DNA of 64,000 nt from Ostreococcus lucimarinus (Eukaryota), in the NCBI GenBank assembly GCA_000092065.1, contig CP000591.1, one strand, 5' to 3'. Made by a program: the position numbers and the translations under genes. A model generated the notes under the pieces. It had not been told where the DNA came from and ran no database searches. It saw nothing but the letters and a program-made list of their open reading frames with translations. Positions 12,937 through 57,853 of this stretch are shown here, one piece after another (within the stretch, counting starts at the first letter, position 1; every line of letters begins with the position of its first letter).

Positions 12937-13000
12937 CTGGCGGCGCAAAACCCGTCGCGCGTCAGTCGAGAGCTTCGGGACAAAAAGTGTACTTTCGCAC

Positions 13001-13126
13001 CTGCGTCGGGTCTTCGGGCGGCGGCCAGCCGATGGAGACGACGTGGGTCACACTCTGCGCGTCGCATATCGATGGGAGATCATGCTCGGCGCAGAAGATC
13101 AAGCGCGCCGGGTGGACGGACGACAT
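13001..13126 (-). CDS. DUSP12: DUSP12, exon 1 (42 codons) joined to exon 2 through a 64-bp GT-AG intron (13000..12937)
   Basis: My reverse-strand translation from the ATG at 13126 gives MSSVHPARLIFCAEHDLPSICDAQSVTHVVSIGWPPPEDPTQ, then a GTGCGA donor, CGACTGACGCG about 25 nt before CCAG, and an in-frame continuation GRIDASRTLVVPLPDDDLADLL. This matches the N-terminus of the DUSP phosphatase fold. Confidence 0.7.
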
Positions 13127-13221
13127 GATGTGCGGTGACGCGACGCGTGACGCTCGTTGAGGCTAAACGGTTGTTGAGCTTTTAGAGTCGCGGCGCGCTG
13201 CGCGCTGAAATTATCATTATA

Positions 13222-14592
13222 TCACGCGAGACTGGCGGTTTTGTTGTGGAATTCGGCGAGCAGCTTTTCGCGCCCGCATTCGATGGCCGCATCCATGGCT
13301 TCGCGCTCGCGTCGAGAGGCGTCGAGTTCGCGGCGCTCGAGCTCGAGCCGAGCTTCGCGCTCGGCGAATTTTTCTTCCGCCAAACGACGCACCTCTCTGG
13401 AGTGTTCGAGAAGTTTCATGCGGCGCTTTTGTGCGCTCAGTTGCTCCACGCGATCGTCTTCAGCGAGCTTTGCGGCGAGATCTCGCTGAAATTGTTTCTT
13501 TTCTTCCAAAGCTTGAGCCTCTCTCGCTTCTCGCGCGGCGACGGCGGCTTCGTATTCGCGACGCTGCTCATCGCGTCTTCGCGCAGCATTTTCGCGCTCT
13601 TCGGCTTCTTTCACGCGACACGCCTCTTCAAATTCTTCAAATCGCAATCGCGAAATCAGTTCGTCAAAGTCTGCGCGCTCTTGCGCGGCGCGCGTCTGCG
13701 AAGTCTCGACGGAAACGCGAGCGCGTTCTTTACGCTTCTCTTCTTTACGCTTCTCTTCTTCCTCTTTCGCCTCTCGCCGCGCCACCATCTCATCGTGTCG
13801 CATGATTTGCTCTTCCAACGCCTTCACCGCCTCAGCTTCGCGCGCGACTCGCGCTCGTTTCTCCTCCAGCGCCTTCGCCGCGTCGCGTTTCGCGCACTCT
13901 CTTCTCGCGATGGCTTCTCGTCTTTCCTCTTCATCTTCCGCCTCAATCTTTTTCACTAACTGCGCCATCTTCCGTCGCTCGTCCTCCTTCTCCATCGCTC
14001 GTTTGCTCATGCGAAGCGCCCGCTCCGCGTGCTGCGCGTCGAGCGCCTCGCGCGCCGCGATTTTCTTTGCCAACTTTGCCGCTCTCTCTCTCTCATCGCG
14101 CGCCACCCCTTCCAATCTCTCGCGTTCCATCTCCGCATCCAGCGCGCGCTGCCGCTCCATCTCCAACTTTTCCAACGCTTTCTTCTCCTCGATCTGGTTA
14201 TTTCGAATCGCGTGCGTCTCCATCGCCGACAGCCTCGCTCGCAGCGCTCGCATCGCGTCCGTCTCCAGCGCGCGCGCCGCCGTCGACGCCTCTCGACTCG
14301 CCCGCCGTTCCTCGTTCGCCTTCGCCCTCGACGCTCGCTCCAGCGTCGACGCCCGTCGCATCGTATCGTCTCGCGCGCCGTCTCGACCGCCTTCCGTCGC
14401 GTCGCCGCGCGTCGCCGCCGTCGTCGCGCGCGCCGCGTCGTCACCAAACTCGGCGTCGAGCGCCTCCAATCGTCTCTGCAGCGCCTCCTCCCGCGTCCCG
14501 CGTCGCAGCGCCTCGCGCACGTCGCGATTCCATCGCTCGCGCTCTCGAGCCTCGAGCTGTCGCGCCTCGCGCTCGCGCGCCAGCGCGCGCAT
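13222..14592 (-). CDS. Glu/Arg/Lys-rich coiled-coil protein, trichoplein/MNS1/CFAP-type (possible flagellar or centriolar TPH-domain protein)
   Basis: 455 aa that are almost entirely heptad-like E/R/K/A coiled coil (for example EEKRKEEKRKERARV). ATG at 14592. The family call rests on composition only. Confidence 0.35.
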   Translation of the reverse strand: MRALAREREARQLEARERERWNRDVREALRRGTREEALQRRLEALDAEFGDDAARATTAATRGDATEGGRDGARDDTMRRASTLERASRAKANEERRASREASTAARALETDAMRALRARLSAMETHAIRNNQIEEKKALEKLEMERQRALDAEMERERLEGVARDERERAAKLAKKIAAREALDAQHAERALRMSKRAMEKEDERRKMAQLVKKIEAEDEEERREAIARRECAKRDAAKALEEKRARVAREAEAVKALEEQIMRHDEMVARREAKEEEEKRKEEKRKERARVSVETSQTRAAQERADFDELISRLRFEEFEEACRVKEAEERENAARRRDEQRREYEAAVAAREAREAQALEEKKQFQRDLAAKLAEDDRVEQLSAQKRRMKLLEHSREVRRLAEEKFAEREARLELERRELDASRREREAMDAAIECGREKLLAEFHNKTASLA

Positions 14593-15205
14593 CGCGTCGC
14601 GTCGCTTCGCGCTGTGACGATTTATGTCGCGCTCAACGCTAATTTTAGCGCGCGCTATAAATATCGCGCGACGCGACGCGCGTCGATCGACGCGCGCGCG
14701 AGATCCGAGATCGCGTTGTTACCGTTCGCATTACACCCGTCGCCGTCGCCCTCGCGCGCTCGAGCGCTCGCCCTCGCGCGCGCTCGACCCTCGCCGACCC
14801 TCGCCGACCCTCGTCGCGATCGCTCGATCGCCGCGCGCGTCGCGCCGCGCCGCCCTCGCGCGCGTCGCGCCGCGCCCATCGACGTCGCGCGTCACGCCGC
14901 GTCCGATCTCGCGCCCTTGGCGCGTCGCGCCTTGTCCGCGGCGACGTAGACGGCGAACGCGCCGGCGCCGAGCGCGAGCCCCGGGAACGCGCGCGACCAC
15001 GGTTTGTTCAGCAGCGGGTGCGCGCGCCACGCGTCGGCGCGCGCGAACGGGTTCGACGTCGGCATCGCGCGCGTTCGCGCGCGGTCGCGAGAGGCGGCAG
15101 CGCGCGCGTGTGACGCGCGCGCGAAGCGTCACCGTTTCGAATTCGACTCGACTCGACAGCGCGGCGCGCGACGTCGCGTCGACCGCGCGCGCGTCGTGCG
15201 CGACG

Positions 15206-16297
15206 ATGCCGCCGCGGCGCGACGCGCCGCTCGAGGCGTGCGAGGCGTGCTCGACGGACGACGAGGACGCGCTGCGAGCGACGCTCGCGACGACGCCGTG
15301 CACGATCGTGGACGCGCGCGGGAACACGCTCCTGCACCTGTGCTGCGCGAACGACGCGCTGCGATGCGCGAAATTAGTCGTGTCGCGGTGCGTGTTCGCG
15401 TCGACGCCGCCGGAGCGGGCGTACCTGACGCTGAGGAACTCGGACGGGGAGACGGCGGCGGATGTCGCGGAGGCGTGCGGGAGCGCGAGGTGCGCGGAGT
15501 GGTTGGCGAAGATGACGGGCGCGGAACGCGTCGCGACGAACGATGCGCGACGAAAAGACGTGGGGAAGGGCGAGAGGCGACGCGCGGACGACGAACGGCG
15601 ACGAAAGAGGTCGGGAGATGGGGAGACGGAGGCGACGACGCGCGCGCGGGAATCGTTGGTGCGGTCGATTCGAGAGGCGCTGAATATCGGGCCAGGGGAC
15701 GACGGCGACGAGCGGGCGGCGGTGCGGCAGGTGTTGAGGGAGGTTTTGAATCTCGTGAGCGATCGCGAGAGCGCGCGAAGGGAGTTGGAGGAGGCGCATC
15801 GAAAGATTGAAGCGATGGAACGAGACGCGGAGCGGGAACGCGCAAACGTCGTCGAGGCGCTGGGGATGGCGGAGAAGCGGGCGAAGGAGATGATTTCGGA
15901 GCGCGAAGCGCGCGAAAAGGACATCTGCGCGGAGAAAACGGCGCTGAGTGAGGCCCTGAACGCGACTGGGGCGGAGTACGAAGCGGGATACGCGAAGGGG
16001 TGGGCGGACGCGTTGCAGCTGCCGAGTCGCGAATACGTTCGCGCGCAGATGAAGCTCGAGAAGAGCGCTTCCGCGAGCAGCGCGTCGGAGAGCGCGACGC
16101 CGGCGCTGGCGACGGATGATGCGTGCGAAGCGTTCGCGGACGTATCGCTCGATGGTTCCGCGTCCATCGCGTCGCGCGTGACCAACGTTTTTAAGGAAAC
16201 ATTCGTCGGCGTGAAGAAGCGCGTAGATGAGCTAGAAAAGTCGCTCACGGGGAGCGCCGAGAAGAAGAATCCTCCGCGCGCGTCGCCGTCGTCGTGA
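15206..16297 (+). CDS. ankyrin-repeat plus coiled-coil protein
   Basis: After the ATG at 15206 come two ankyrin-like repeats (GNTLLHLCCANDALRCAKLVV ... DGETAADVAEACGSARCAEWL) and then a coiled-coil C-terminal half. The track ORF from 14624 is an upstream Arg-rich extension. Confidence 0.55.
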   Translation: MPPRRDAPLEACEACSTDDEDALRATLATTPCTIVDARGNTLLHLCCANDALRCAKLVVSRCVFASTPPERAYLTLRNSDGETAADVAEACGSARCAEWLAKMTGAERVATNDARRKDVGKGERRRADDERRRKRSGDGETEATTRARESLVRSIREALNIGPGDDGDERAAVRQVLREVLNLVSDRESARRELEEAHRKIEAMERDAERERANVVEALGMAEKRAKEMISEREAREKDICAEKTALSEALNATGAEYEAGYAKGWADALQLPSREYVRAQMKLEKSASASSASESATPALATDDACEAFADVSLDGSASIASRVTNVFKETFVGVKKRVDELEKSLTGSAEKKNPPRASPSS

Positions 16298-19646: not shown

Positions 19647-21896
19647 TCAAACCATAACCATGTCGTCGGGCTTCACGACGCTTGAACGTTCCTTCTCGTC
19701 TTCCTGTGCTTGTGCCTTCCACATGGCGGCGTACATGCCAATCTTTGTGCCGCGACTCGTACCGTCGAGCAACTCGGCGTGCGTGCCTTCCTCGACAATT
19801 CTACCTTGTTCCATGACGATGATGCGATCGCAAGATCGAACGGTGGAAAGACGATGAGCGACGAAAACCGCAGTACGACCGCGAGCCACGTCTTCGAGAC
19901 TCTCTAAGATGCCTTGTTCGGTCGCGGTGTCCAACGCGCTCGTCGCTTCATCGGCGACTAGCATGCGCGGTTCGCGCAAAAACGCGCGCGCGATGGCCAC
20001 ACGTTGCTTTTCGCCACCGCTTAGCTTCACACCACGCTCTCCAACCATTGTTTCTCGCCCCTTGGGCATCTGTTCGATCGTCTTGTTCAAGCGCGCGCGC
20101 GTCGCCGCCATGGCCACCTCGTCGTCATTCGCCGTCGGTCTGCCGTAGCGAATGTTGTGGTCCAGCGTGTCGTTGAAGAGCACGGTATCTTGAGGGACCA
20201 CGGCGACGGAGTCACGAAGAGAATCGATCTTCAAGTCACGCACATCGTAGCCATCGATGGAAATTTTCCCGCTCGATACGTCGTACACGCGCAAAATGAG
20301 TCGGAGCAAGGTGCTCTTCCCAGAGCCGCTCGGGCCGACGATGCCGACGGATTCACCCGGCTTGAGTTTCAAAGAGACGCCTTTGAGAACGTCGCGACCG
20401 TTGCCGTATCGGAACGTCACGTTATCTAGCTCGAGATCTGCACCGCCCGCGTGCGCGGGCAAGGCGATTTCACCGTCGGGGATTTTCGTTTCCGTCGCCA
20501 TGATGTCGAACATTGCCTCCATGTCGACGAGCGACTGACGCAATTCTCGATAGAAGAAACCCAAAAACTGCAGAGGCGCCCAAAGCTGAAGTAAAAGTCC
20601 GTTTGCCATGACCAAGTCACCCACACGAGACGCCAATCCACCCGCAGGATCTACTTTCCACAGCCCCAACGCCGCGCACGATAAAATTGTCGTCATCCCA
20701 CATGCCAAAATAACCGCCTGCCCGGCGTTCAAAAGACTCGACGCTCGCTCGCTTCCGAGCGCAGCTTCGTGGTAGCCGCGCAGGAGTTTGTCGTACTGCT
20801 GACTTTCTAACTCTACGTTCCCGAAGAACGTCACCGTTTCGTAGTTCAACAGCGCGTCCACCGCCTTGCCGGTGGATAAACCGTCCATGTGATTGGCCAA
20901 CTTTCTCTTCTCCGCGCTCACGCCCGTCATGTGCATCGTCCACCACACGTACGCCACGAACGTGGTCAAGACGATGACGACAAAGTGCCAAGAAAACGCG
21001 TGCCAAAGCAACCCGCACACCAGCGCGAGCTCCATCGCGGTCGGTAAAAAGGTAAACACCACGGCGCGAAACACCATGCTCACCGACCGCGTGCCGCGAT
21101 CGATGATTCTCTGCAGCGCCCCCGTGCGTCGCTCGAGGTGAAAGCTCAAATCTAAGTTTAACACGTGATTAAACACCTCCAACGCCACCCTGCGTCCCGA
21201 AGCTTGCGCCACTGGGGTAAACATCACCGTCCTCAGCTCCGTGGCGACGCCGCTAATCGCCTTCAAGCACCCCGAAACCAACAACGCCGCCGCCGCCGCC
21301 TTGGCCGCTTCCGTCGCCACCATCCCCGTCGCCGCCGCCGCCGCCGTACAATGATCTACCGCAACCTTAAAAAGCACCGGCACCGCCAATCCAAAGCTCT
21401 TCTGAATCACTAAAAACGTCAAAGCCGCGCACAACCGCCAAGCCGTGCCCCTCCGCGACAGCGACACCGCGAAAAGATACGGCAGCACATCCCTCAGATC
21501 GCTCGTTCGCGGCGGCGGCGGGATCGGTCCGTCCAGACTCACGTCCCCGGCGCGAAAATACGCGTTTTCATCGCCGCTCTCGCGCGCGGGCATCGCCATC
21601 GCGGCCGCCGCGTTCGCCTTCGTCCGCGCGGATAAGCGTCCCGCGCCGCCGCGCCGTCCCGGTCCCACCGCGATCGCCCGCGTCGTCGTCCGCGCGCTCG
21701 CGCGCGACGAAACGCGCGCCCGCGCGCCGTCGGTCCCGTCCACGGCGCGCGTCGCGCGCGTCGTCGCGTCGGGCGCGCGCCGCGCGACGGCGAAACCGCG
21801 TCGACGTGGCAGCGGCGATTCCGTCGTCGCGTCGCGCGCGCGCGCGGACGCGCCGTCGGCGCGCGCGCGCGCGGCGACGCGCGCGGCGACCATCAT
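19647..21896 (-). CDS. ATM1: mitochondrial ABC half-transporter, ATM1/ABCB7 type
   Basis: An ABCB transmembrane domain is followed by a nucleotide-binding domain with Walker A GPSGSGKST, the ABC signature LSGGEKQR and Walker B MLVADE. There is an Arg/Ala-rich presequence. Start is either ATG 21896 (with presequence) or ATG 21599. Confidence 0.85.
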   Translation of the reverse strand: MMVAARVAARARADGASARARDATTESPLPRRRGFAVARRAPDATTRATRAVDGTDGARARVSSRASARTTTRAIAVGPGRRGGAGRLSARTKANAAAAMAMPARESGDENAYFRAGDVSLDGPIPPPPRTSDLRDVLPYLFAVSLSRRGTAWRLCAALTFLVIQKSFGLAVPVLFKVAVDHCTAAAAATGMVATEAAKAAAAALLVSGCLKAISGVATELRTVMFTPVAQASGRRVALEVFNHVLNLDLSFHLERRTGALQRIIDRGTRSVSMVFRAVVFTFLPTAMELALVCGLLWHAFSWHFVVIVLTTFVAYVWWTMHMTGVSAEKRKLANHMDGLSTGKAVDALLNYETVTFFGNVELESQQYDKLLRGYHEAALGSERASSLLNAGQAVILACGMTTILSCAALGLWKVDPAGGLASRVGDLVMANGLLLQLWAPLQFLGFFYRELRQSLVDMEAMFDIMATETKIPDGEIALPAHAGGADLELDNVTFRYGNGRDVLKGVSLKLKPGESVGIVGPSGSGKSTLLRLILRVYDVSSGKISIDGYDVRDLKIDSLRDSVAVVPQDTVLFNDTLDHNIRYGRPTANDDEVAMAATRARLNKTIEQMPKGRETMVGERGVKLSGGEKQRVAIARAFLREPRMLVADEATSALDTATEQGILESLEDVARGRTAVFVAHRLSTVRSCDRIIVMEQGRIVEEGTHAELLDGTSRGTKIGMYAAMWKAQAQEDEKERSSVVKPDDMVMV

Positions 21897-22184: not shown

Positions 22185-24104
22185 ATGACGACGCGCGTCG
22201 CGGTCATCGCGGCGCGGGTCGCGCGTCAGGGAGGCGTGACGCCTTCGTCGTCGATCAGGGCGTGCGCGAGCGGACGACAGGCGTGGGCGACGCGCGGAGG
22301 GCTGGGAATGAGCGGAGGGCAAACCTGGACGGCGAACGGCGCCGTCGCGTCGCCGGCGGCGCGACGACGGACGGGACGGCAGAACGCGACGACGACGCGC
22401 GCGCTGGGAGAGCGAGGGAAGGAAAGTCGCGGTGAAAGGATGGCGATGAAGTCGTCGAAGAGCGCGACGCACGTGTCGAACTTGAACGCGGCGGCGACGC
22501 AAGAGTTGAAGCATTGGTCAACGACGAACGAAGCCGAACGAGCGGAACGCGCCGCCACAAAGGTGTTTTGCAATCGAAGTCTGAACATGAAACGAATCAA
22601 CGCGATTGGATTCGACATGGACTACACGTTGGCCATGTACAAGCCGGAGACGTTCGAGATGATGTCGTATTCAGAGACTAAAAAAAAGCTGGTCGAGTCG
22701 TACAACTACCCGCGCGCGTTGCTCGAGTCGTTCGAGTTCGATCCGGATTACATGGTGCGCGGGTTGGTGGTGGATAAGAAGAGAGGGAACGTTTTAAAGA
22801 TGGATCGACACAACTATGTCAAGGTGGCGTATCACGGATTCACGGCTTTAGACACCGATGAACGGTTGGCGACGTATTGCGAGACGAGCAAGCGTCAAAG
22901 TTTTGACGGTCCCGAATTTAGCGCTTTAGACACATTATTTTCCATGGGCGAGGCCTACCTGTTCAGCCAGCTCGTGGAGGCGAAAGATTCGGGCAAGCAT
23001 GGCGAGTTTTTTGAGAGAAAGACATTCATGCAAATGTACGACGAGATACGAGCGGCGGTTGACTTGTGTCACAGAGACGGCTCGTTGAAGCACGCCGTGG
23101 CGGAAAATCCGAGCAAGTACATCACGAAGGACGCAGACTTGGTTCCTTTGCTAAAGGCTTTGCGAGCGAGCGGGAAACAAGTGTTTTTGCTTACGAACTC
23201 TCTGTGGGATTACACAAACGTCGTCATGAATTATCTCATCGACGACAACGTTGGCGACCAAAAAAAACTCGAATGGCTCAACTTGTTTGACGTCGTTGTG
23301 ACTGGCTCGGCGAAACCGGGCTTCTTCGCTAACGATTCGGCGACGATATTCGAAGTCGACACCGCGACTGGGCTTTTGCACAACACCGACAACGGCGCAC
23401 CATTGACTCCAATCGGCAGCGTGTCGGATTCGACGCACAAACGAGCGCTCGCGAGTGGGTTGCGCGCCACGGGCAAAGGTCCGGCGAGGGTGTACCAAGG
23501 CGGTTCGTACACGCACCTTCACGCCATGCTCGGCATTGAGATTGGCTCGAGATTGCTTTACGTCGGCGACCACATTTATGGCGATATTTTGCGAGCGAAG
23601 AAAGAGATTGATTGGCGCACGATGCTCGTCGTCCCCGAACTCGCGCACGAAATCGACTGCCTGGAACGCATGAAGGAAAAACCGCACGCGCTCAGGCGTT
23701 TGCGCACGCTGCGCGATTCTTTGGACGATCAAGTCGCGCGTCACGCCTGGCTCGCGGCGAACGCCGCCGACCCGAAAGCAAACGAAGAGGAGTTAGAACG
23801 CGCGAGACAACTGTCGGCGACGGCGCGCACCGCGCATCGCGAGGGTATGCGCGAGTATCACAAGTCGTTTCACTATGTCTGGGGTCAACTCATGAAGGCT
23901 GGGTCGCAGAACTCTCGTTTCGCGTTTCAAGTTGAGCGGTACGCGTGCCTGTACACGTCGCACGTGAGGAATCTGTGGGGCTACTCGCCCGAGAAGGTTT
24001 TCCGCGCCCCCGCTGACTTTTCGCCGCACGACTTGGACACGGACTACGACTTTCACGACTTTGACGCCGCGGTTTTGGACGACCCATCGTCCATGACTTC
24101 TTAA
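22185..24104 (+). CDS. NT5C2: cytosolic purine 5'-nucleotidase, NT5C2-like (HAD-IG family)
   Basis: Contains VFCNRSLNMKRINAIGFDMDYTL (the HAD motif I, DMDYT) and is collinear with NT5C2 through LYVGDHIYGDILRAKKEIDWRT. The N-terminal roughly 130 aa look like a targeting extension. Confidence 0.85.
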   Translation: MTTRVAVIAARVARQGGVTPSSSIRACASGRQAWATRGGLGMSGGQTWTANGAVASPAARRRTGRQNATTTRALGERGKESRGERMAMKSSKSATHVSNLNAAATQELKHWSTTNEAERAERAATKVFCNRSLNMKRINAIGFDMDYTLAMYKPETFEMMSYSETKKKLVESYNYPRALLESFEFDPDYMVRGLVVDKKRGNVLKMDRHNYVKVAYHGFTALDTDERLATYCETSKRQSFDGPEFSALDTLFSMGEAYLFSQLVEAKDSGKHGEFFERKTFMQMYDEIRAAVDLCHRDGSLKHAVAENPSKYITKDADLVPLLKALRASGKQVFLLTNSLWDYTNVVMNYLIDDNVGDQKKLEWLNLFDVVVTGSAKPGFFANDSATIFEVDTATGLLHNTDNGAPLTPIGSVSDSTHKRALASGLRATGKGPARVYQGGSYTHLHAMLGIEIGSRLLYVGDHIYGDILRAKKEIDWRTMLVVPELAHEIDCLERMKEKPHALRRLRTLRDSLDDQVARHAWLAANAADPKANEEELERARQLSATARTAHREGMREYHKSFHYVWGQLMKAGSQNSRFAFQVERYACLYTSHVRNLWGYSPEKVFRAPADFSPHDLDTDYDFHDFDAAVLDDPSSMTS

Positions 24105-24168
24105 ATTCGTTCGTTCGGCGCGAAATTGTTGTTGTATTACGTACATATTAATATCACATCGTTCGAGT

Positions 24169-25185
24169 TCATCGACGAATCTTCACCTTGAGCACGCGAT
24201 CGTCGCCCTCGTCGTCGTCGTCGACGTCCACCGCGATCGCGCGCGCGAGATACCCATCCATGTGTTCGATCAACTCGACGCCGACTTTACACGCGAGCTT
24301 GCGCATTGCCTGCGCCGTGCCTCGATCAAGACTCTCCCCTCCCGCGCCAAACTCGGCACAAATCGTCCCTTCACGATCGACACCGACGCTCATCGTCGCC
24401 TCCGAACACGCCGTCTCCTCCTCCGTCGCGTCCACGACGCCGTGTCTTCCAATCTTCGTCGTCGTCACCACCACGCCGCACCTCGACACGTCCACGCGCG
24501 AGCACGCCTCGGGATCGTCATCAATCTCCAACTCCCCGCCCGCACCATCCTCACCCACGCCCGCGACCGTGACTTTCGGAATCTTCGTATCCGCCAACGC
24601 CGCTCGCACGCCCACGCTCAGCGCATCCAACATCGACCCTCGATCGCACGCGCACGCGCAGTCCACCGTCAGCGTCCACCGCGCTCGCCCCGGTTTCACG
24701 CACAACGATTTCAAATCGATCCCGAACTGCTCTCGCTTCCCCATCCCTCGCGCGATCGCCCCATCTTCATCTCCCGCTTCCTCTCCCTCGCGTCTCCGCA
24801 CCGCTTCGCGTCCGATGAGCACGGATTCCAACGCTCGCGCGTACGTCGCCCCCAGGTTTTCCGCCGCCTCCTCCCGCGCGCGTTCGTTCCCTCCCTCCCG
24901 CGTCTTCACCGTCGCGCTCGCGTCCACGCGCACGACCACGCGTCCGCAATCCTGATCATCGTCGCTCTCTCGCACCGCCGTCACGTCCGCGCGCACCGCG
25001 ACGACGCACCGCGTCGCGTTCGCGCCGTCCCCCAGCGCCACCGCCGCGCTTCCGCTCGCGCTCGGCACCGCGCGCAGCGTCACGGCGCACGCGCGGTGGT
25101 CGTCCAGCGCGCGTCCGTCGTTTCGCGCGCGCGCCGCGACGCCCGCGACGACGTACGCGCGCTCGGCGCGCGACACCGTCGCCAT
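24169..25185 (-). CDS. RNase PH-like exosome subunit (RRP43/RRP42 class)
   Basis: Has an RNase PH domain 1 core, RNDGRALDDHRACAVTLRAVPSASGSA..GDGAN, and a second RNase-PH-like half. No catalytic phosphate-binding residues are apparent, as in inactive eukaryotic exosome ring subunits. ATG at 25185. Confidence 0.6.
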   Translation of the reverse strand: MATVSRAERAYVVAGVAARARNDGRALDDHRACAVTLRAVPSASGSAAVALGDGANATRCVVAVRADVTAVRESDDDQDCGRVVVRVDASATVKTREGGNERAREEAAENLGATYARALESVLIGREAVRRREGEEAGDEDGAIARGMGKREQFGIDLKSLCVKPGRARWTLTVDCACACDRGSMLDALSVGVRAALADTKIPKVTVAGVGEDGAGGELEIDDDPEACSRVDVSRCGVVVTTTKIGRHGVVDATEEETACSEATMSVGVDREGTICAEFGAGGESLDRGTAQAMRKLACKVGVELIEHMDGYLARAIAVDVDDDDEGDDRVLKVKIRR

Positions 25186-25364
25186 TCGTCGCGTCGCGCG
25201 ATGGCGTCGAATCCGATCGCGACGACGAATCTGCACTCGGTGACGCGTCGCGACGCGCGCGAACGCCCGCGCGACGCGACGCGGGACGCGAAAAGCGCGC
25301 GCGCGGTCGACGCCGTCGAGGCGCGCGCGCGCGACGAAAGGCGCGACGAGAGGCGCCGATCGAC

Positions 25365-25538
25365 ATGATGCTGCAGCGACCGCCGAATCGCGACCGAACG
25401 CGCGAATTCGCCGCCGTCGCGGACCGCGTGCGGAAGACGATGGGCGCGAGCGCGAGCGCGGACGATCGGACGTCGACCGTGGGCGCGGAGGGGGCGAAGA
25501 CGGCGGCGGGGGGAGGGAACGCGAGCGATTTCGCCAAG
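25365..25538 (+). CDS. STX5: syntaxin 5 (Sed5), exon 1
   Basis: MMLQRPPNRDRTREFAAV carries the Sly1-binding DRTxEF motif typical of Syx5/Sed5. The exon ends at ..SDFAK before a GTGCGC donor at 25539. Confidence 0.75.
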
Positions 25539-25669
25539 GTGCGCTCGATCGTTTATTCGAGCGCGAACGCGCGACGAAGGACGACGCGGCGACGACGCGC
25601 GCGGACGAGCGTTTCGAGGACGCGCGACTGACGACGAACGCGTGAACGATGGGTCGCGACGCGAATCAG

Positions 25670-26515
25670 ATGGCGTCGGCGATCGGGCACGGAATTCATC
25701 GAACGTCGCTGAAGCTCGAACGGCTCAATCAGCTCGCGAAGTCGTCGTCGCTGTACGACGATAAATCGAGAGAGATAGCGGAGACGAGCGCGGTGATCAA
25801 GCTGGACATTCAAGCGCTGAATGAATCCATAGTTGAACTGCAGGGCGCGGCGGCGAGGACGCGAGAGCGAGGGGAGGCGAATAAGTCGGCGAGCGATCAC
25901 AGCGTCACGGTGGTGGATACGTTGAAGAATCGACTGGCGACGGCGACGAAGACGTTTAAGGAGACATTGACGACGAGACAGGCGAACATCAAGGCTGGAG
26001 AAGAACGAAGGGCGATGTTTGGCGCGAGCGCGGGACCGAGCGCGTTCGATGGTGGGTTGGACTACCTCGGCGACGACGCGTTTTCGCGCGCCATGCGAGA
26101 AGGCGCGAGCGGATTCGGCAACTTGCAGGGGAACGCGAACGCGTTCGTGCCGCGCCCGAGCGCGCCGGGCGCAGGCGTTTCTGGGGCGCCGATGATGCAA
26201 ACGCAAGGTCAAATGCAGCTTTACAATCAAAACACCGCCTACGCCGATTCGCGGCAGGAGGCTTTGCAAAACGTCGAGCGCACCATCACCGAGCTCGGCG
26301 GCATTTTCCAGCAGCTCGCCACCATGGTGAGCGAACAGGGCGAACTCGCCATTCGCATCGACGAAAACGTCGACGACACCCTGGCCAACGTCGACAGCGC
26401 GCAAACGCAGCTGTTAAAGTATTTGAACACGGTGAGCAGCAACCGGTGGCTGATTCTAAAAATCTTCGCCGTGTTGATCTCCTTCTTTAGCTTCTTCATA
26501 GTCTTCATCGCGTGA
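25670..26515 (+). CDS. STX5: syntaxin 5, exon 2 (Habc region, SNARE motif and TM anchor), after a 131-bp intron (25539..25669)
   Basis: The splice joins SDFAK|MASAIGHGIHRTSLKLERL, matching human SEFTLMAKRIGKDLSNTFAKLEKL. The C-terminus has a Qa-SNARE (IFQQLATMVSEQGELAIRIDENV) and a tail anchor (NRWLILKIFAVLISFF). ACTGACG lies 38 nt before the acceptor. Confidence 0.8.
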   Translation: MASAIGHGIHRTSLKLERLNQLAKSSSLYDDKSREIAETSAVIKLDIQALNESIVELQGAAARTRERGEANKSASDHSVTVVDTLKNRLATATKTFKETLTTRQANIKAGEERRAMFGASAGPSAFDGGLDYLGDDAFSRAMREGASGFGNLQGNANAFVPRPSAPGAGVSGAPMMQTQGQMQLYNQNTAYADSRQEALQNVERTITELGGIFQQLATMVSEQGELAIRIDENVDDTLANVDSAQTQLLKYLNTVSSNRWLILKIFAVLISFFSFFIVFIA

Positions 26516-26589
26516 GCGAAACGAAACATTGTCATAATTCATTCCCCGCCTCCGCAAGCGTTGTCCGCGCGTCGTTCGCCGTCGTATCG

Positions 26590-36474: not shown

Positions 36475-36514
<40 letters not shown>

Positions 36515-43412: not shown

Positions 43413-43559
43413 GCGGCGCGCTAGCCTCGTCTCGGGCAAAGCGATTTTTATTGTTAATACAGTGCAGTCATTCATTTCTTTGACCGAGTCAACGCGCGCG
43501 CGCGCGCGACGGCAGTGCGCCACGCGCGTGCGCGCGATATCGCCGATATCATGCGTGCG

Positions 43560-44570
43560 ATGGCTGACGTCGACGGCGCGTGCGCGCGCCTCAAACGCGC
43601 CCTTCGACGCGCAAAGTTTCCGCGAAGCAGAGCGGGAACACGAATCGACACCGAGCTGAAGAGAGGGGATGGTAAAACTTTCGTCGCCATCCTTCGCCAT
43701 GCGCTGTGCGCGCGCTCAAAGCCGGTGTCCAGGCGCGTTTACGATCGTGGGCACGATCTCGTGGGCGTCGAGTCGCCTTTACGATTCACCGAACGCGCGT
43801 TCAGGGCGACGATCGATGTGTTCGGGTACAAGCCAAAGTTGAGCGCGTCGCAATTCGCGTCCACGAACGGGTTCGCCGTGGTGAAGATGATGACGGTCAT
43901 CGACGTTCTCGCGCACGTGGAGGCGATGGAAGTTAATATCGAACGGGAAGTCGCGCGCGAAGCGTCTCGACGACGCACGAGCGGAGGTCTCACCGGGTCG
44001 TTGCTCGACGCGGGGCCGCGCCGTCGCTCGGCGCTGGAGCCTCGCTTCGCGCGGGGCCGAGTCGAGGACGAGCGTGGTGTGGACGAGTCGAACGATGCGC
44101 ACGCACACACGTTCTGCGACACCGACAACTGGGTGACACGCTTGGGCGATGAGTACGACGATGTCGTATACGAAGCGCCTATTCGCGGCGTCGTGTACAC
44201 CAATCCCGGATACGTCGTTCATCGCCGCGCGCGATCGCCGCGCGAACCGGTATTCGATGCGTCCGTATCGATTGATTCCTTACGCGTTGAATTCGCTGAA
44301 GTTCTTGGTAGGCTGACACGCGTAGAAAACGAACTCACCGAGGTCGCCGCGAGGTGTTTGAAGTTGGAACGCCGCGAGGCGCAAACTCTGAAGAAGGTTG
44401 ACCGCGCGCCGGCCGCTTCGCGAGACGCATCGCCTTCGATTCTATCGGACTCGGTTGAAATTCGCCAAGCCGACTCACCGTCGAAGGAATCTACCGAAGA
44501 GTTCATCGCGCGGTATCTTAGAAAGTTGCGCGACGTCGTGCGAGAAGAAGAGACTCGCTTTGATTGCTGA
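43560..44570 (+). CDS. CEP44: centrosomal protein CEP44 homolog
   Basis: The N-terminal conserved domain MADVDGACARLKRALRRAKFP ... LRFTERAFRATIDVFGYKPKLSASQFASTNGFAVVKMMTVIDVL is collinear with the human CEP44 N-terminus, followed by a coiled coil. Alternative ATG at 43551. Confidence 0.65.
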   Translation: MADVDGACARLKRALRRAKFPRSRAGTRIDTELKRGDGKTFVAILRHALCARSKPVSRRVYDRGHDLVGVESPLRFTERAFRATIDVFGYKPKLSASQFASTNGFAVVKMMTVIDVLAHVEAMEVNIEREVAREASRRRTSGGLTGSLLDAGPRRRSALEPRFARGRVEDERGVDESNDAHAHTFCDTDNWVTRLGDEYDDVVYEAPIRGVVYTNPGYVVHRRARSPREPVFDASVSIDSLRVEFAEVLGRLTRVENELTEVAARCLKLERREAQTLKKVDRAPAASRDASPSILSDSVEIRQADSPSKESTEEFIARYLRKLRDVVREEETRFDC

Positions 44571-44615
44571 ATTGCTAAAACAAATTGTTTGAATGTCGTC
44601 GCTGCCGCTAATGCG

Positions 44616-45785
44616 CTAATCAGATGTCGCCGTCGTCGTCGACGCAGATTTCTCGCTGCGTCTAAAGTACATCACCATTGCCGCGAACGCGGCCACCGTG
44701 ATCGCGCCCGCGAGCGCCGGTCGCTTGCGATAAAGTTGCGCCGCGCGCTCGCCGAATCCTCTCGTCGTCGGCTCCGTCGTTGGATCCGTCTGCACCATGC
44801 GCGCGCACACCTCACGCTCGCCCTCGTGCACCGCATTCATGCGTCGACGCACGCGCACGAACGCCTCGCGAATCGCTCGATCTTTGCTCAACTCCAGGGC
44901 GTCGCGAAGCGAAGTCAACGCCTCCTCGTCCCGCCCTTGCTGCTCGAGCGCCATCGCCTTGCGGTACATGGCTTTCACCGCCGTCGCGTCGAGATCCAAA
45001 GCCGCCTCTGCGTGTAGGATCGCTTCGGAGTGTCGTTGTAACTTCGACAAGCACGTCGCCGAGTTCACGTGACACTTCACCGCCAGCGCCAAGGCGTCCT
45101 TCGCGCCGGCTCGCGCCGTCGACATGATGGTTCGCCTCAACGCCGTCGCCGCGTCCTCGTACCTCCGCAACGCCCTGGCGTAGCCATTTTCTTCTTCACC
45201 TCGAGCGAACAACGCGTTCGCTTCCTCCTTCTTCCGTTCACAATACCTCAAAACCTCCTCGACGCTCGCATCAACGCTCGGTTTTTCCTCTCGCGTCACC
45301 GAAAGCAGCTCGACTTCCCACTCGACGTACACGTTTCGCGGCGCCGGCGAAAACGGTTCGCTCGCGAACGGCGCCCCTCCGCTCGGCACGACGATTCCCA
45401 CGCGTTCGCCCACGCGCATCGTCGTCACCGCCGCCTCCACGCCCGCGCACGGCACGAAATTCACCGGCGCCGCGTCGTCCACTCTGAAAGTCAGAACCTC
45501 TCGCGGTCTCGCCGCGTCTCGAGACGTCTCGTCCCGCACGATCGCGTCGTCCTCCACCCTTCGCGCGCGCCAGCCGTAGTGCGCGATCGTGACGACGTCG
45601 TCCGCGCGCGGCGCGCTCGCGTCGTCGCGCGTCGCGTCGTCGTCGTCGTCGTCGTCGCGCGTCGCGAGCGAGATTTTCGAGGCGTCGTCGTCGCGCATCG
45701 AGCGCACGCGCACGCGCGCGCCCGGAGGTAGGCGCGGACCGACGCGCACGACGCGCGCGTCGACGCGATCGTCGCGAGCGGTCAT
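44616..45785 (-). CDS. FKBP-domain plus three-TPR, tail-anchored protein (FKBP8/FKBP38 or TWD1-like)
   Basis: A degenerate FKBP PPIase domain (VTIAHYGW ... FRVDDAAPVNFVPCAGVEAAVTTMRVGERV) is followed by three TPR units and a C-terminal TM anchor AGAITVAAFAAMVMYF. Confidence 0.65.
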   Translation of the reverse strand: MTARDDRVDARVVRVGPRLPPGARVRVRSMRDDDASKISLATRDDDDDDDATRDDASAPRADDVVTIAHYGWRARRVEDDAIVRDETSRDAARPREVLTFRVDDAAPVNFVPCAGVEAAVTTMRVGERVGIVVPSGGAPFASEPFSPAPRNVYVEWEVELLSVTREEKPSVDASVEEVLRYCERKKEEANALFARGEEENGYARALRRYEDAATALRRTIMSTARAGAKDALALAVKCHVNSATCLSKLQRHSEAILHAEAALDLDATAVKAMYRKAMALEQQGRDEEALTSLRDALELSKDRAIREAFVRVRRRMNAVHEGEREVCARMVQTDPTTEPTTRGFGERAAQLYRKRPALAGAITVAAFAAMVMYFRRSEKSASTTTATSD

Positions 45786-46041
45786 CGCGTCGCGATTCGA
45801 CGCGCGTTCGCGTGTGACCGCCGCGCGCGAACCGTCTCGTCGTCTCGTCCCTCGGACTCGCGTTCGCGGGCTTCTACGTTACAACGCTGAAACGAACGCG
45901 AACGACGAGCATCGCGCGCATCATCGGAAACGACGTCGCGTGTTTCCACGCTTGCGTCGTCGCTTCGTCACGGTCGCGGATCCCGTCGTTCGACGTCGCC
46001 GCCGCCGCGACTACTTCCTTCGCTACTTCACCGCTTCGCGT

Positions 46042-46293
46042 CTACTTCATGTACTTTCGCACCCCCGGGGTTTGTTTCGATTTCTCCCACCCGTATTTCA
46101 TCGCGTTCGCCGCGGCTTGCTTCAGATACGCCGTGTTCGCGATCGCCTCGTACGCGTCGGCGCCGTCGCGGCCGCGCGTCAGCGCCACCGTCTCGTGTTC
46201 TTTCCCAACCTTGAACCCGAGCTGTCGCGACGCCGCGCGCGCGGGCGCGTCGTACTGCGGGAATCCGTACTGCGTCGCGGCGCCGTCAGTCAT
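46042..46293 (-). CDS. small hypothetical protein (83 aa)
   Basis: ATG at 46293, coding-like third-position GC, no family recognised (MTDGAATQYGFPQYDAPAR ... KYGWEKSKQTPGVRKYMK). Confidence 0.3.
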   Translation of the reverse strand: MTDGAATQYGFPQYDAPARAASRQLGFKVGKEHETVALTRGRDGADAYEAIANTAYLKQAAANAMKYGWEKSKQTPGVRKYMK

Positions 46294-46575
46294 CGCTCGC
46301 GTCGATCGTTTCGCGTCGTCGCCGTTACCTTGTAAATCACCCTCGACAGCTTCCCCGCTCTGAACAGCGCGAGGTCCTCGCGCGCGGCGATCGGACTCTT
46401 CACGCGTCACGCGATCTGATCGTTCGTCTTGCGACCGGAACCGAACGCGCGCGGGACGACGGCGCGACGACGCGCGGTCGGGGCGGCGAATCCGAGGGCG
46501 AGCGGACGCGCGGCCATCGCGCGAGGCGACGAGTGCGGGCGGCCGGCGACGAACGCGCGGCGGACGCGCGGCGGA

Positions 46576-48168: not shown

Positions 48169-50400
48169 CTAACTGTCTTCAAACTTTTCCACGGATGCTG
48201 TCCTCTTGGCGTGCGCCAACTCCAGTACGACGTGGGAGACGCCCGAGACGCTCAAGTCTTCGTCGATGACTTGCGGGAGGAACTTTTCTCCGAGCAAGTC
48301 CATGAGTGCGCGGTTATCGGGGTCGGTGTTGTGCACGCGGATGGTTTTCCCGACGTCCGCGTATCGCACGTACAGTGAATTCAGCGCGGCGAGGGAGGAG
48401 TAATCCTTGATCTTGCACTTGTCCATGTAAATCACGACGTCTCGTGGATCCGGTCCCATGCGGAACGAGTTTGTAAACTCGCGATCGGTGCCAAAGAAAA
48501 GCTCCCCGTAAACTTCGTACGCCACGCGCGTTGTGCCTTTTTCGCATCCAAATATTTCTTCTTCGCGACGAATGACTCGCAAAGACCCAGTGGAGTTGTC
48601 CCACGCGTAGAATAAGCACGCGACGACGACCCCGACGCCGACTGCGATGGCCAAGTTGGTTCGCTCGGTGACGACGGTGACTAAGATGATGATGGCGGAA
48701 TCTTTCCAGCGAATGCGATCGTTCGTATCGAACCAGAACTTGCGTAGACGACGACCGGCGTAATCTTCGCGCGTGCCATCCTCCTTGCGCCCAATAATCA
48801 ATCCCTTAAGATCGCCGGACATGAGCGGCAAGCACGTCCAGTCAAAGGTGTAAATGACAATCATGAACAAAACTCCCGTCAACGCGGCGAGAGGGATAAG
48901 CTCGATCACCTTGGATGCGGCGACGATGAAAATCAAGAACATAATCGAGGCAAAAGCAGTAGATAAGCGTCCGACGCCGCCAGATTTGACGTTGATCTGC
49001 GATTGCCCAATCATGGCGTCGCCGCCCATCGCCTTGAACATGCCAGACATCGTGTTCGCAATGCCTTGCGCGATGCACTCTTGCGTGAATCTACCGGTGG
49101 CATCCGAGGTGTCGTCCAAAATTTCGTCAACGCACTGAAGCGTGAGCACGGACTCGATCAAACCCACCGCGGCGAGGGAAAACGTGATCCCGAACACGTG
49201 CGCAAAGGACTTGCCTGTGAGGTTCACGTTAGGCGTGTGGTACAAGGGAAAGTCAACCTTCACCGGTGCGGCATCACTCACGACAGGGGTGTCCGCGTGA
49301 ATCAAAGGACGATTAATAGCATGTTCCAAGAGCAAGCACCAAAGAATGGCGACGAGAGATGACGGAAGAATCTTGGTGTACTTTGGCAAGAAGTGCACGA
49401 TGGCCATCGAGGTAAAGACGTAAAACAACATGAGCCAAGTTGTTCCTTCATCGAGCGTGCGCCACACCAATGAATCCTCATAGCCACCGTGGATGTCGGC
49501 GTTTTTGTTTGCCGAGAACTCGGCGAGCGTGATGGTGCCGCTGGAGTCGGTGTCGACCTGCGTCTGCAAGGCGGCGACGTACGCGTTCAAGTCGCTCGTC
49601 GACAAATCCGGAAGTTCGACGGCGTAAACCGTCGTCACCTCCGCCGTGCTGATGAGCCCATCACGATTGCTGTCGAAAACATTAAACGCAGCTTGCCAGT
49701 CTTTCTCCTTGAACACCTCCAACTGAGCCTTGAAGATGATGATGGCCAAGCCGTTGACGAAACCCGTCATGACGGTTTGCGGAATCAGCCGCATGAGTCG
49801 TCCAGCCTGCACGATGCCGAGGACGATCTGTAACACCCCGCACAAGATCATAATCATGAACAACCACTCTAAGCGCGCTGCGTTGGCCTGATGTCGCAAG
49901 CTCTTGCACCCAGCCGCGGCCCCTGTGCACGACGCGATTTCCCCCCACTCCAGCAGCTTCGCCTGCGGCAGCAAACCGTCCGGTTCCATGATCCTCACCG
50001 CCACCACCGCCATCGCTCCCGCGGCGCCGCTCACCATCCCAGGTCGTCCACCGATCAAAGCGGTGATGATGCCCATGAAAAACGTCGCGTACAACCCCAC
50101 GACCGGGTCCACGAGCGCGACGAAGGAAAACGCCACCGACTCGGGCACCTGCGCCACAGCCACCGTGAGCCCGCTCAGGATTTCGCTCTTAAATTTCAAC
50201 GGCTCGGCGCGATAGTACTCGTACGACTCTCTGAAGTATTTCGGTCCGCTCAGGAACGTGTCCGAGAACCCGATGCGGTGCGTGAGCTTTTGCATTCCAT
50301 TCATGGCGGCGACTTTCTCGGCGAGCGCTTTCTCGTGCGCCGCGTCCTCAAGCGCTTGCTTGGACGGCACGTGGTGCAGAGCATCACCGTCGGGCGTCAT
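48169..50400 (-). CDS. SulP/SLC26-family anion transporter with a C-terminal STAS domain and an inserted pair of canonical EF-hands
   Basis: SulP signature region GLTVAVAQVPESVAFSFVALVDPVVGLYATFFMGIITALIGGRPGMVSG. Between membrane helices lie two 12-residue calcium loops, DSNRDGLISTAE and DTDSSGTITLAE. The STAS domain is C-terminal. The first ATG is at 50400; the track start at 50466 is TTG. Confidence 0.75.
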   Translation of the reverse strand: MTPDGDALHHVPSKQALEDAAHEKALAEKVAAMNGMQKLTHRIGFSDTFLSGPKYFRESYEYYRAEPLKFKSEILSGLTVAVAQVPESVAFSFVALVDPVVGLYATFFMGIITALIGGRPGMVSGAAGAMAVVAVRIMEPDGLLPQAKLLEWGEIASCTGAAAGCKSLRHQANAARLEWLFMIMILCGVLQIVLGIVQAGRLMRLIPQTVMTGFVNGLAIIIFKAQLEVFKEKDWQAAFNVFDSNRDGLISTAEVTTVYAVELPDLSTSDLNAYVAALQTQVDTDSSGTITLAEFSANKNADIHGGYEDSLVWRTLDEGTTWLMLFYVFTSMAIVHFLPKYTKILPSSLVAILWCLLLEHAINRPLIHADTPVVSDAAPVKVDFPLYHTPNVNLTGKSFAHVFGITFSLAAVGLIESVLTLQCVDEILDDTSDATGRFTQECIAQGIANTMSGMFKAMGGDAMIGQSQINVKSGGVGRLSTAFASIMFLIFIVAASKVIELIPLAALTGVLFMIVIYTFDWTCLPLMSGDLKGLIIGRKEDGTREDYAGRRLRKFWFDTNDRIRWKDSAIIILVTVVTERTNLAIAVGVGVVVACLFYAWDNSTGSLRVIRREEEIFGCEKGTTRVAYEVYGELFFGTDREFTNSFRMGPDPRDVVIYMDKCKIKDYSSLAALNSLYVRYADVGKTIRVHNTDPDNRALMDLLGEKFLPQVIDEDLSVSGVSHVVLELAHAKRTASVEKFEDS

Positions 50401-50802
50401 GACGTCGCAATCCTCGCGAAATGTCGCGTTCGCGGCGTTCGACGCGCGGGATAGTGCCGGGGACAAGATGCAGAGTGTTTTGGATAGCCGACGCGCGCGC
50501 CGTCGCTCGTCGCGAAACGCGCGGCGCGGACGGAGCGCAGCGCGGACGCGCGGGACGCGGAACGAAGAAACGGAGCGGACGCACGTCTCGAGTTTTCAGT
50601 TTTCGCGCCCTCACCGGCGCGCGTTTTAAAATTTCAACCTTCTACCGTTCGGAGCGAGCTAAACTCCCATCCGGACCGAGACGCGTAGACGCGTCGTCGT
50701 CGTCGTCGTCGTCGCGAACGAGCGAGCGAACGAGCAAACGCGCGACGAACGGTTTACGTCCCATCTCGAGTGTTTCACGTCAACCACCGTCCGAGCGGTC
50801 GT

Positions 50803-50865
50803 TTACGCGGCGCACTTCACGCGACCCGCCTTGTTGATGGCGGAGATGCGAGCGAGCGCGGCTTT
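50803..50865 (-). CDS. RPL28: 60S ribosomal protein L28e, exon 2 (last 20 codons)
   Basis: After a 176-bp intron (51041..50866, GTGCGA ... ACTGACG ... TAG) the frame reads KAALARISAINKAGRVKCAA*, matching plant L28e ..KKAALARLSAISKG. Confidence 0.65.
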   Translation of the reverse strand, partial: KAALARISAINKAGRVKCAA

Positions 50866-51041
50866 CTACGAATCGAACGCGTTTCGCGCACCCGTCAGTC
50901 ATCGGATTCCGTCGCCGTCGCGCGCGCGCACCGCCTCCATCGTCGCGCGCGTCCATCCCGCGCGAACGTCCTGTCCCGCGTGTTACGCGTGTCACGCGCG
51001 TTACGCGTCGCGTCCTCCTCGAAAACCCTAAACGATCGCAC

Positions 51042-51344
51042 CTCCAAGTCCGGTCGCGCCTTCGCCGCGATCTTCACCTCGCCCGCCTGCGACTTGAACG
51101 ACCCGCACAATTTCTTCCCATCGCACGTCGCCGCCGGCTTCCCCTTCCCGCCGTCGTGCTCGCGAATATCGATCGTCTTCGCGTTCGCCAGCCCGCTCGC
51201 GCGGAACGACACCTCCGCGGTCACGTTGCCCGGTTCCGCGCTGAATCGCGCGCCGTGTCCGCTCGTCGACGCGCGCGTGAACGCGTTGTGTTTCTTCGTC
51301 ACCTGCCACAGGAAGTCATCGCTCGCGGGGACGTGGGAGATCAT
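51042..51344 (-). CDS. RPL28: 60S ribosomal protein L28e, exon 1
   Basis: MISHVPASDDFLWQVTKKHNAFT ... FSAEPGNVTAEVSFRASGLANAKTIDI ... KARPDLE is collinear with eukaryotic L28e. ATG at 51344. Confidence 0.8.
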
Positions 51345-51727
51345 CGCGTTCGCGCGTTCGCGTCGCGGAGAGACGGCGCGCGGCATCGGCGCGCGGGCGA
51401 CGACGCGCTGGACCCTAATCACACTCGCGCGCGGCGCCGGACCTCGCGTCGTTTCGCGAGACGCGTCGATCGACGCGACGCGACGCCCGCGACGCGACTT
51501 CCGCGCGCGACTTCCGAGCGAATTTTCGCGATGGCGATCGATAAATTGATGATGATCTCGGGCGCGGGCACGGTGCGCGACGACGCGAACGCGCGAACGC
51601 GCGAACGCGCAAATTTGCAAATTCGCGATTTCATCGCGACGGCGGTGCTGACGCGACGTCGTCCGCGACGCGCGCGACGACTGACGACGCGCGGGCGCGC
51701 GCGCGATAGCTGTCCTACGGCGTGCAG

Positions 51728-51772
51728 ATGAAATTCATGCCCAAAGTGGCGAGTAAGATGTACTGGAAAGAG
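51728..51772 (+). CDS. small conserved-looking membrane protein, predicted exon 1 (15 codons)
   Basis: ATGAAATTCATGCCCAAAGTGGCGAGTAAGATGTACTGGAAAGAG is followed directly by a GTGCGC donor. An 81-bp intron has ACTGACG 25 nt before the CAG acceptor. Confidence 0.4.
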
Positions 51773-51853
51773 GTGCGCGCGACGGCGCGCGCGAACGCGA
51801 ACGCGAACGACCGCGATCGATCGTTCGACTGACGGTTGGGCGTCGCGCCGCAG

Positions 51854-52123
51854 GGCGAACGAAACAACATCGACACCGTGCAGAGCGGATGGTTGGGCAC
51901 CGTGCTCTTGGGCTCGGGCGCGCTGCAAGTCATGTCCGCGCTGGACGGCGAGTGCACGAAGAACCAAATGGGCGGCGCCGCGCTCGCGTGGGCGGTGACG
52001 CTTCCGGAATACGTCGCGCAGCGCGACGACTTCAAGGGACCGATGCTCTACGCGAACACGGCGATGGCCACCGCGCTGACCGCGGTGCTCGTCAAGTCGT
52101 ACTTGGATAAGCGGGACAAGTGA
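51854..52123 (+). CDS. small membrane protein, exon 2 (spliced product about 104 aa)
   Basis: GERNNIDTVQSGWLGTVLLGSGALQVMSAL ... AMATALTAVLVKSYLDKRDK has two hydrophobic helices with GxxxG-like packing motifs. The track's M at 51836 is TTG. Confidence 0.45.
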   Translation, partial: GERNNIDTVQSGWLGTVLLGSGALQVMSALDGECTKNQMGGAALAWAVTLPEYVAQRDDFKGPMLYANTAMATALTAVLVKSYLDKRDK

Positions 52124-52255
52124 TCGCGATGACGACGTCCGCGCGCGGGTCGAGTCGTCGACGGCGCGAAATCAGACCGCGACGAACGCGTTCGATCCCA
52201 AAGCGTCTCGCGAGTCTACAATAAAAGTTTACTTTACGTTTGTCGCACCTCGACA

Positions 52256-52297: not shown

Positions 52298-52301
52298 GAT
52301 C

Positions 52302-57669: not shown

Positions 57670-57813
57670 CTGCGCGGATCCGCCTCGCCGTCGGCGACGT
57701 CGTCAGTCATCGCGCGCATCGCGCACCGCGCGCCTCCTCGGCGACCGCGCCGTCCCGACGCCTCCTCCGCGCCCGCGCCGCGCGTTCGATCGCGCGCGCG
57801 CGCAAAACCTCTC

Positions 57814-57817
57814 GCGT

Positions 57818-57848
<31 letters not shown>
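57814..57848. repeat. (GCGTC)7 on the plus strand, i.e. (GACGC)7 on the eIF3L strand, located inside the eIF3L intron
   Basis: cgcgtcgcgtcgcgtcgcgtcgcgtcgcgtcgcgcg, read directly. Confidence 0.9.
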
Positions 57849-57850
<2 letters not shown>

Positions 57851-57853
57851 CAC

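Follow-up and report, generated by a model that had tools for sequence, protein, structure and literature searches.

Splice Signals in Mamiellophyceae Introns

Strict splice signals are known from Ostreococcus lucimarinus, in which introns confirmed by expressed sequence tags and located outside chromosome 2 contain ACTGAC in 87.2% of cases and the longer GACTGACG in 66.5%, together with an "atypical" 5′ consensus, GTGCGTG, a 3′ end that prefers CGCAG, and a branch-to-AG distance with a broad peak at ~20–35 bp (Irimia & Roy 2008, PLoS Genet 4:e1000148, PMC2483917). The canonical introns of Micromonas favour AG|GTGCGT and an NCTGAC branch point, GACTGACG being the same sequence as Ostreococcus's extended branch point (Verhelst et al. 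2013, PMC3879977), and a GacUGAC branch point has been reported for the introner elements of Micromonas (Simmons et al. 2015, PMC4540971). The outlier chromosome (BOC1) has introns that are short (<75 nt), AT-rich (<43% GC), and devoid of a recognisable branch motif. The subject of this work is a set of 13 small introns in a stretch of 64,000 nucleotides (nt) of O. lucimarinus DNA (assembly GCA_000092065.1, contig CP000591.1), the whole of which is called the window. Seven of them had been put forward, in an original prediction made from the sequence alone, as GT–AG introns with a GTGCG donor and an invariant ACTGACG branch-point box. These introns are very probably (probability about 0.96) ordinary U2-type introns of the "canonical", strict-signal class found throughout the GC-rich main part of Mamiellophyceae genomes, where introns are few, and eight of them are removed from RNA exactly at GT and AG.

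Introns and Their Signals

The seven predicted intervals start with GTGCG and then A, C, or T, contain a single ACTGACG, and end in CAG or TAG, at the following coordinates and on the following strands:

12937..13000, minus strand: DUSP12 intron, 64 nt, phase 0 (cag|GTGCGA...cGACTGACGc...CCAG)
25539..25669, plus strand: syntaxin-5 (STX5) intron, 131 nt, phase 0
39614..39814, minus strand: telobox/Myb (TRB-like) intron, 201 nt, phase 2
42806..42985, plus strand: nucleoside diphosphate kinase (NDK) intron, 180 nt, phase 2
50866..51041, minus strand: ribosomal protein L28e intron, 176 nt, phase 0
51773..51853, plus strand: small membrane protein gene, second intron, 81 nt, phase 0
57670..57853, minus strand: eIF3L intron, 184 nt, phase 1

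When an interval is excised, the long open frames on its two sides join in a single phase, and the junction peptide is the one that had been predicted for it. All seven are supported as small GT–AG introns by their signals (7/7), the restored open reading frame (ORF; 7/7), and exact RNA junctions (5/7). The distance from the start of the box to the last intron base is 25–42 nt, compared with the 25–40 nt originally given, STX5 and NDK both being at 42 nt; the presumed branch adenosine lies 21–38 nt from the 3′ end. Moreover, ACTGACG is preceded by G in every intron, which extends the conserved unit to GACTGACG.

When the remaining boxes were traced through the window, another six box-bearing introns, absent from the original prediction, were found:

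5009..5175, plus strand: glucose-6-phosphate isomerase (PGI) intron a, 167 nt, phase 1; box and donor present, RNA junction
5286..5398, plus strand: PGI intron b, 113 nt, phase 0; box and donor present, RNA junction
33140..33340, plus strand: annexin gene intron, 201 nt, 7 bases past a candidate ATG (MG|ICSS...); signals and frame fit
35143..35283, plus strand: intron of 141 nt in the 5′ untranslated region (UTR) of gene 35290..37044; signals present, 35058 as alternative donor
46270..46328, minus strand: small-gene intron, 59 nt, with a GTAACG donor, GATGACTGACGG box, and CAG acceptor
51573..51709, plus strand: small membrane protein gene, first intron, 137 nt, phase 0; found via the box, RNA junction

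The window thus holds at least 13 such introns rather than seven. Across the 13, the consensus comprises aG|GTGCG (12/13), GACTGACG (13/13), and YAG (13/13; seven CAG and six TAG), with the branch adenosine 16–38 nt from the 3′ end and with C (6/13) more often than T (3/13) at donor position +6. The claim of an invariant box holds for all 13 introns, including the six added ones, whereas the GTGCG donor, constant in the seven introns first listed, is replaced by GTAACG in one of the others and is a strong consensus, not an invariant one. As had been proposed, the box is reusable for gene modelling, at least within the window, where used alone as a probe it revealed six introns overlooked in a careful reading. 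The window has 62.7% GC, lacks a low-GC block, and carries ~46 genes; within it, neither a codon-usage map (no broken ORF beyond the known introns) nor a relaxed scan allowing one mismatch in the box disclosed any additional intron.

Some of the added introns deserve comment. The 59-nt intron has its branch adenosine 16 nt from CAG, and its removal produces ...SRVIYK|YGFPQY..., which corresponds to the uninterrupted KVTFKYGFPQY in MMETSP transcripts of relatives. The acceptor of 35143..35283 is located 6 nt ahead of the ATG, and composition, the only basis for the choice, points to the donor at 35143 rather than that at 35058. The annexin intron could instead be a 5′-UTR intron if the downstream Met is the start. 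A 538-amino-acid (aa) form beginning at that Met is on record in the protein collection, and RefSeq has a partial model of 301 aa; no form starting at the upstream ATG was found on record, only the downstream-Met form. Translation from the ATG before the intron would leave an exon 1 (33133..33139) consisting of ATGGGGA only and a protein beginning MGICSS, which, if that ATG is used, we take to be a plausible motif for N-myristoylation and palmitoylation.

Evidence of Splicing from RNA-Derived Contigs and Proteins

Contigs encoding the spliced proteins were fetched and aligned to the window, and each junction was probed with 20 + 20 nt, an exact substring being required. Exact spliced 40-mers occur in RNA-derived contigs for 8 of the 13 introns, and an unspliced boundary is present in none of the fetched contigs. 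Transcript junctions, proposed at the outset as a check, were found for five of the seven introns first listed: the eIF3L junction is exact in contig L001, which ends in Illumina adaptor sequence, the NDK junction in L002 (JGI) and L003 (Logan), the syntaxin-5 junction in L010 and L011, the L28e junction in L012, and that of the second small-membrane-protein intron, together with that of the first, in L012 and L013. Both PGI junctions are exact in L008 and L009.

The spliced models also agree with recorded proteins. Those of eIF3L (502 aa) and L28e (121 aa) are identical, residue for residue, to XP_001420552.1 and XP_001420551.1, respectively, and the two-intron model of the small membrane protein (124 aa) equals XP_001420383.1 and MMETSP Transcript_209. 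The three matching RefSeq proteins belong to Ostreococcus lucimarinus CCE9901 and are encoded on one 593,542-bp contig. The spliced syntaxin-5 model (339 aa) equals the transcriptome-derived UniRef entry A0A7R9XRE2, and the 602-aa PGI model and the 633-aa spliced PGI model are likewise on record in the collection. In addition, the Pfam domains of NDK, telobox/Myb, and L28e cross their junctions as single stretches.

The run SRR28369075 lacks four introns, namely those of NDK, L28e, and both of the small membrane protein. Because four different introns are missing from one run, its contigs are taken as RNA-derived and not as intron-loss alleles. For the same reason, a presence/absence polymorphism of the NDK intron, as might be read from the multi-gene contigs L002 and L003 without it, was rejected, since the L28e and membrane-protein introns are missing from the same run. 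Contigs L002, L003, L010, and L012 (window 40683..45546, 23626..26557, and 49355..52247) are continuous over 3–5 adjacent genes on both strands with all introns gone, which implies that multi-gene contigs are assemblies of overlapping or read-through transcripts of neighbours in a compact genome.

Orthologous Introns and Domain Continuity

The 64-nt DUSP12 interval is not a multiple of three, and its retention would shift the frame. The spliced protein aligns with human DUSP12 (4jnb_A) without a gap over the junction, from residue 26 to 27 through 163 to 164, and an intron is found at the identical codon in close and distant relatives (P0248, P0218, and P0220). The read-through peptides of these relatives start with VR (GTGCG), end with Q (CAG), and contain TD (ACTGAC) in P0248 and P0218 or AD (GCTGAC) in P0220. 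For the TRB-like protein, the Pfam Myb domain (aa 61–111) spans the junction at aa 96.7 in one stretch, and TRF-type Myb domains of solved structures align over it, with helix 3 (VQLKDKWRN) in exon 2. The DUSP12 and TRB introns are thus supported, at the level of sequence, by domain continuity and, for DUSP12, also by orthologous introns.

The eIF3L intron occurs at the same site and in the same phase in three other species (protein identity 73%, 70%, and 68%), whose introns start with GTGCG, contain a single GACTGACG, end in CAG, and have the branch adenosine 27–39 nt from the 3′ end. Transcript-derived eIF3L homologues (MMETSP, Chloropicon) have an uninterrupted ...HIREKNVYE..., in agreement with the predicted junction. 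The intron bodies are unalignable between species, to the extent that MAFFT left even the boxes out of register. The lengths in the four species (57670..57853 and contigs L004, L006, and L007) are 184, 189, 190, and 193 nt, and this near-equality despite unalignable bodies hints at a length constraint. Upstream of the eIF3L start lies an (ACG)n tandem run (57890..57979, minus strand), one frame of which would be poly-Thr.

Ten database "proteins" (P0001–P0003, P0007, P0171, P0180, P0199, P0217, P0218, and P0248) are prokaryote-style ORFs that begin within such introns or read through them, for instance MYETL..., which starts at a GTG located at the acceptor, and MTDGAATQ..., which starts at the ATG contained in GATGACTGACG. 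Many public "proteins" from Ostreococcus contigs obtained by prokaryote-style calling are read-throughs of this kind; they are artefacts, yet a handy readout of orthologous intron positions.

Statistics of the Signals

Expected numbers of ACTGACG were obtained from dinucleotide-preserving shuffles on both strands of the window. The box alone was observed 17 times, against 10.0 ± 2.7 in the shuffles, and for GTGCG alone there is no enrichment (367 observed, 370 expected). The composite pattern, defined as GTGCG at most 260 nt upstream of the box and YAG 8–40 nt downstream of it, was observed 13 times, against 1.86 ± 1.34 (maximum 6) in 300 shuffles. It recovers 12 of the 13 introns with one false positive (20451..20553, antisense to a large ORF). 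Of the 17 boxes, 13 are found in sense orientation within the 1,835 nt of intron, and those outside introns are:

9731, minus strand: in-frame coding
20534, plus strand: antisense within a 955-codon ORF
40439, minus strand: promoter region
41249, minus strand: antisense in a gene

Just past the box in the promoter region, upstream of the TRB-like gene, there is a (GACC/CCGA)n tandem run (~40385..40425, minus strand). The four boxes outside introns compare with ~10 expected from whole-window shuffles. About one-sixth of this deficit can be accounted for because TGA is a stop in one sense frame, and the sample is too small for the remainder to be called avoidance.

If the introns were retained, the first in-frame stop would be the TGA of the box in 6 of 12 introns (STX5, DUSP12, TRB, L28e, the second intron of the small membrane protein, and PGI intron a). 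For the 59-nt intron, a seventh case, it would be the TGA of GATGAC just 5′ of the box. A function of the box TGA as a stop signal upon retention was considered and discarded, the cases being few and, by judgement rather than by statistical comparison, indistinguishable from the one-third expected by chance.

Intron Recognition

By analogy, the shared box is very probably the branch-point signal. CTGAC, a CTRAY-type branch sequence, is found in 13/13 introns with its adenosine within the 10–50 nt range of the acceptor. According to general splicing knowledge, the aG|GTGCG 5′ end would be recognised by U1 and then by U6, and GACTGACG would be bound first by SF1/BBP and would then pair with the GUAGUA box of U2 small nuclear RNA (snRNA), leaving the second A of the box bulged out as the presumable branch nucleophile. 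The acceptor would be the first YAG 16–38 nt past the branch. The stretch between branch and acceptor is rich in G, A, and CG and lacks a polypyrimidine tract, and the introns contain 10% T, 40% G, and 0.25 CpG per nt, whereas exons have 19% T and 0.137 CpG per nt, and T reaches 25% directly downstream of stop codons. Since there is no polypyrimidine tract and T amounts to only 10% of the introns, recognition appears to depend on the two boxes, and it may resemble that of budding yeast, with two strict boxes rather than a U2AF65-bound tract. The T-poor, CpG-rich composition was also tried as a distinct intron signal and dropped, as the scan flags many coding and other regions as well.

Other intron classes were excluded. 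The short introns of 64 and 59 nt, which could recall the BOC1 class, have 60% and 68% GC, respectively, and both carry GACTGACG. U12-type introns have the 5′ consensus RTATCCTT and the branch TCCTTAAC near the acceptor, and U12 donor or branch sequences are present in 0/13 introns.

Three points weigh against an assignment of all 13 introns to the ordinary strict-signal class. Five of them (DUSP12, TRB, annexin, the 35143 5′-UTR intron, and the 59-nt GTAACG intron) have no transcript match in the searched collections: a spliced DUSP12 or TRB transcript was found neither by exact protein look-ups nor by two junction scans of the metagenome collection, and a look-up of the 584-aa gene neighbouring the 35143 5′-UTR intron returned nothing on record. 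Moreover, the branch adenosine is assigned by analogy, and the G on each side of ACTGAC is outside canonical U2 pairing and is not explained by it.

Alternative Explanations

The co-occurrence of the motifs could be due to chance in a GC-rich genome, so that some of the intervals, chiefly those without an RNA match, would not be introns. Some room for this is left by the ~10 ACTGACG and ~370 GTGCG expected per window and by the composite match at 20451..20553, which is false and antisense in a large ORF. However, the 13 composite matches are far above the 1.86 ± 1.34 of the shuffles, none of which exceeded 6 in 300, every accepted intron has sense orientation and either coincides with an ORF break or directly precedes a start codon, exact RNA junctions exist for eight, and the 64 nt of DUSP12 would shift the frame if kept, all of which makes such coincidence highly improbable. 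Even less credit can be given to a mobile family, in which the boxes would be shared by descent from one element, as in the introner elements of Micromonas. It is true that introner elements of the Mamiellophyceae carry an GACTGACG branch point and that those of the IE-C/ABC-IE type measure ~64–67 nt, close to the 64 nt of the DUSP12 intron. Nevertheless, an all-against-all BLAST of the 13 introns of the window gave only short multi-register matches (GACGCG-type low complexity and the signals) without full-length similarity, the DUSP12 intron has no likeness to the published IE-C alignment beyond the signals, and the eIF3L and DUSP12 introns share their codon with other species, whereas introner elements take novel positions. 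On these three grounds, introner-element identity was rejected.

A different proposal is that these introns depend on a dedicated or co-evolved machinery, with an altered U1 or U2 snRNA or SF1, distinct from that acting on the outlier-chromosome introns, which are AT-rich and have weak signals. The usual U1 5′ end is 3′-GUCCAUUCAUA-5′, longer than the form drawn for Micromonas in the figure of Verhelst et al. That supplementary figure gives the Micromonas U1 5′ end as 3′-ccgUCCAUAUA-5′ (PMC3879977), and the possibility of a dedicated machinery was raised and left open by Irimia & Roy (2008, PMC2483917). It would also be in line with the invariant G flanking ACTGAC on both sides (13/13), which goes beyond standard U2 pairing. 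However, the same authors cited a screen that had detected the spliceosomal RNAs of O. tauri in single copy and favoured one spliceosome (PMC2483917), and the window, in which an Rfam scan retrieved no RNA family at gathering score and hence no snRNA for a pairing analysis, has no bearing on the question. A machinery of this kind is unlikely. There is likewise a slim chance that the flanking Gs and the atypical C at donor position +4 reflect a Mamiellophyceae-specific, co-evolved U1 5′ end, U2 branch-binding region, or SF1 surface; if true, such recognition would set these introns functionally apart from the outlier-chromosome introns with their weak signals. Recognition of ordinary U2-type introns through strict signals is the explanation retained here.

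The Small Gene Containing the GTAACG Intron

The gene that harbours the 59-nt intron (46045..46516, minus strand) lacks a usable ATG. The ATG at 46516 opens a frame of 36 codons; this frame, which is also that of the remaining coding sequence, is closed by a TGA near 46409. The protein of relatives, including Micromonas, has 90 aa, and its Met is located three residues ahead of the F in ...LFRAGKL...; O. lucimarinus has CTC in place of this Met. The TGA is also present in the independent environmental contig P0216, and it is therefore not a sequencing error. An upstream ORF combined with non-AUG initiation, or readthrough or selenocysteine insertion at the TGA, are the alternatives for this gene. 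Its 3′ UTR (45915..45985, minus strand) can adopt a fold resembling a selenocysteine insertion sequence (SECIS), with an outer helix, an internal loop in which GUGA faces GAUGA, a helix of 9 bp, a loop containing AA, and a mini-stem capped by GAAA. This fold is no more stable than shuffled sequences (z = −0.39), and Rfam gave no SECIS match in 45915..45985 even at E = 10.

Comparison with Known Systems

The introns of the window are the same as the non-chromosome-2 introns of O. lucimarinus (Irimia & Roy 2008) in their donor, GACTGACG, spacing, and place outside the low-GC outlier region. With respect to the genome-wide data, the box is present in 13/13 introns, a small sample, and nothing of substance differs; as minor departures from the published consensus, position +6 is here more often C than T, and TAG (6/13) is nearly as frequent as CAG (7/13). 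Strict splice signals are, therefore, already known, having been published for O. lucimarinus in 2008, and the present result is a rediscovery. The pattern already serves as the textbook case of strict splice signals in an intron-poor genome and opens no new question; the nearby point, raised in 2008, concerns a possible origin of the unusual donor and of the Gs beside the box in co-evolved recognition by snRNA or SF1.

The canonical introns of Micromonas (PMC3879977) share the donor, the branch motif, the small number of introns per gene, and the location on GC-rich chromosomes. However, the branch motif lies there 43–52 bp upstream of the acceptor, whereas the branch adenosine is here 16–38 nt from the 3′ end. 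The introner elements IE-C/ABC-IE of Micromonas (PMC3879977, PMC4540971, van Baren et al. 2016 PMC4815162) resemble these introns in GACTGACG and, at ~64–67 nt, in the length of the DUSP12 intron, but they are near-identical repeats at lineage-specific sites, and the introns described here have no common body and occupy at least two conserved positions. The introns of hemiascomycete yeasts (GTATGT...TACTAAC...YAG) are similar in belonging to an intron-poor genome, in their near-invariant boxes, and in their little reliance on a polypyrimidine tract, and differ in the boxes themselves, with GTATGT in place of GTGCG and ACTAAC in place of ACTGAC; the likeness to yeast introns is one of convergence and not of common descent.

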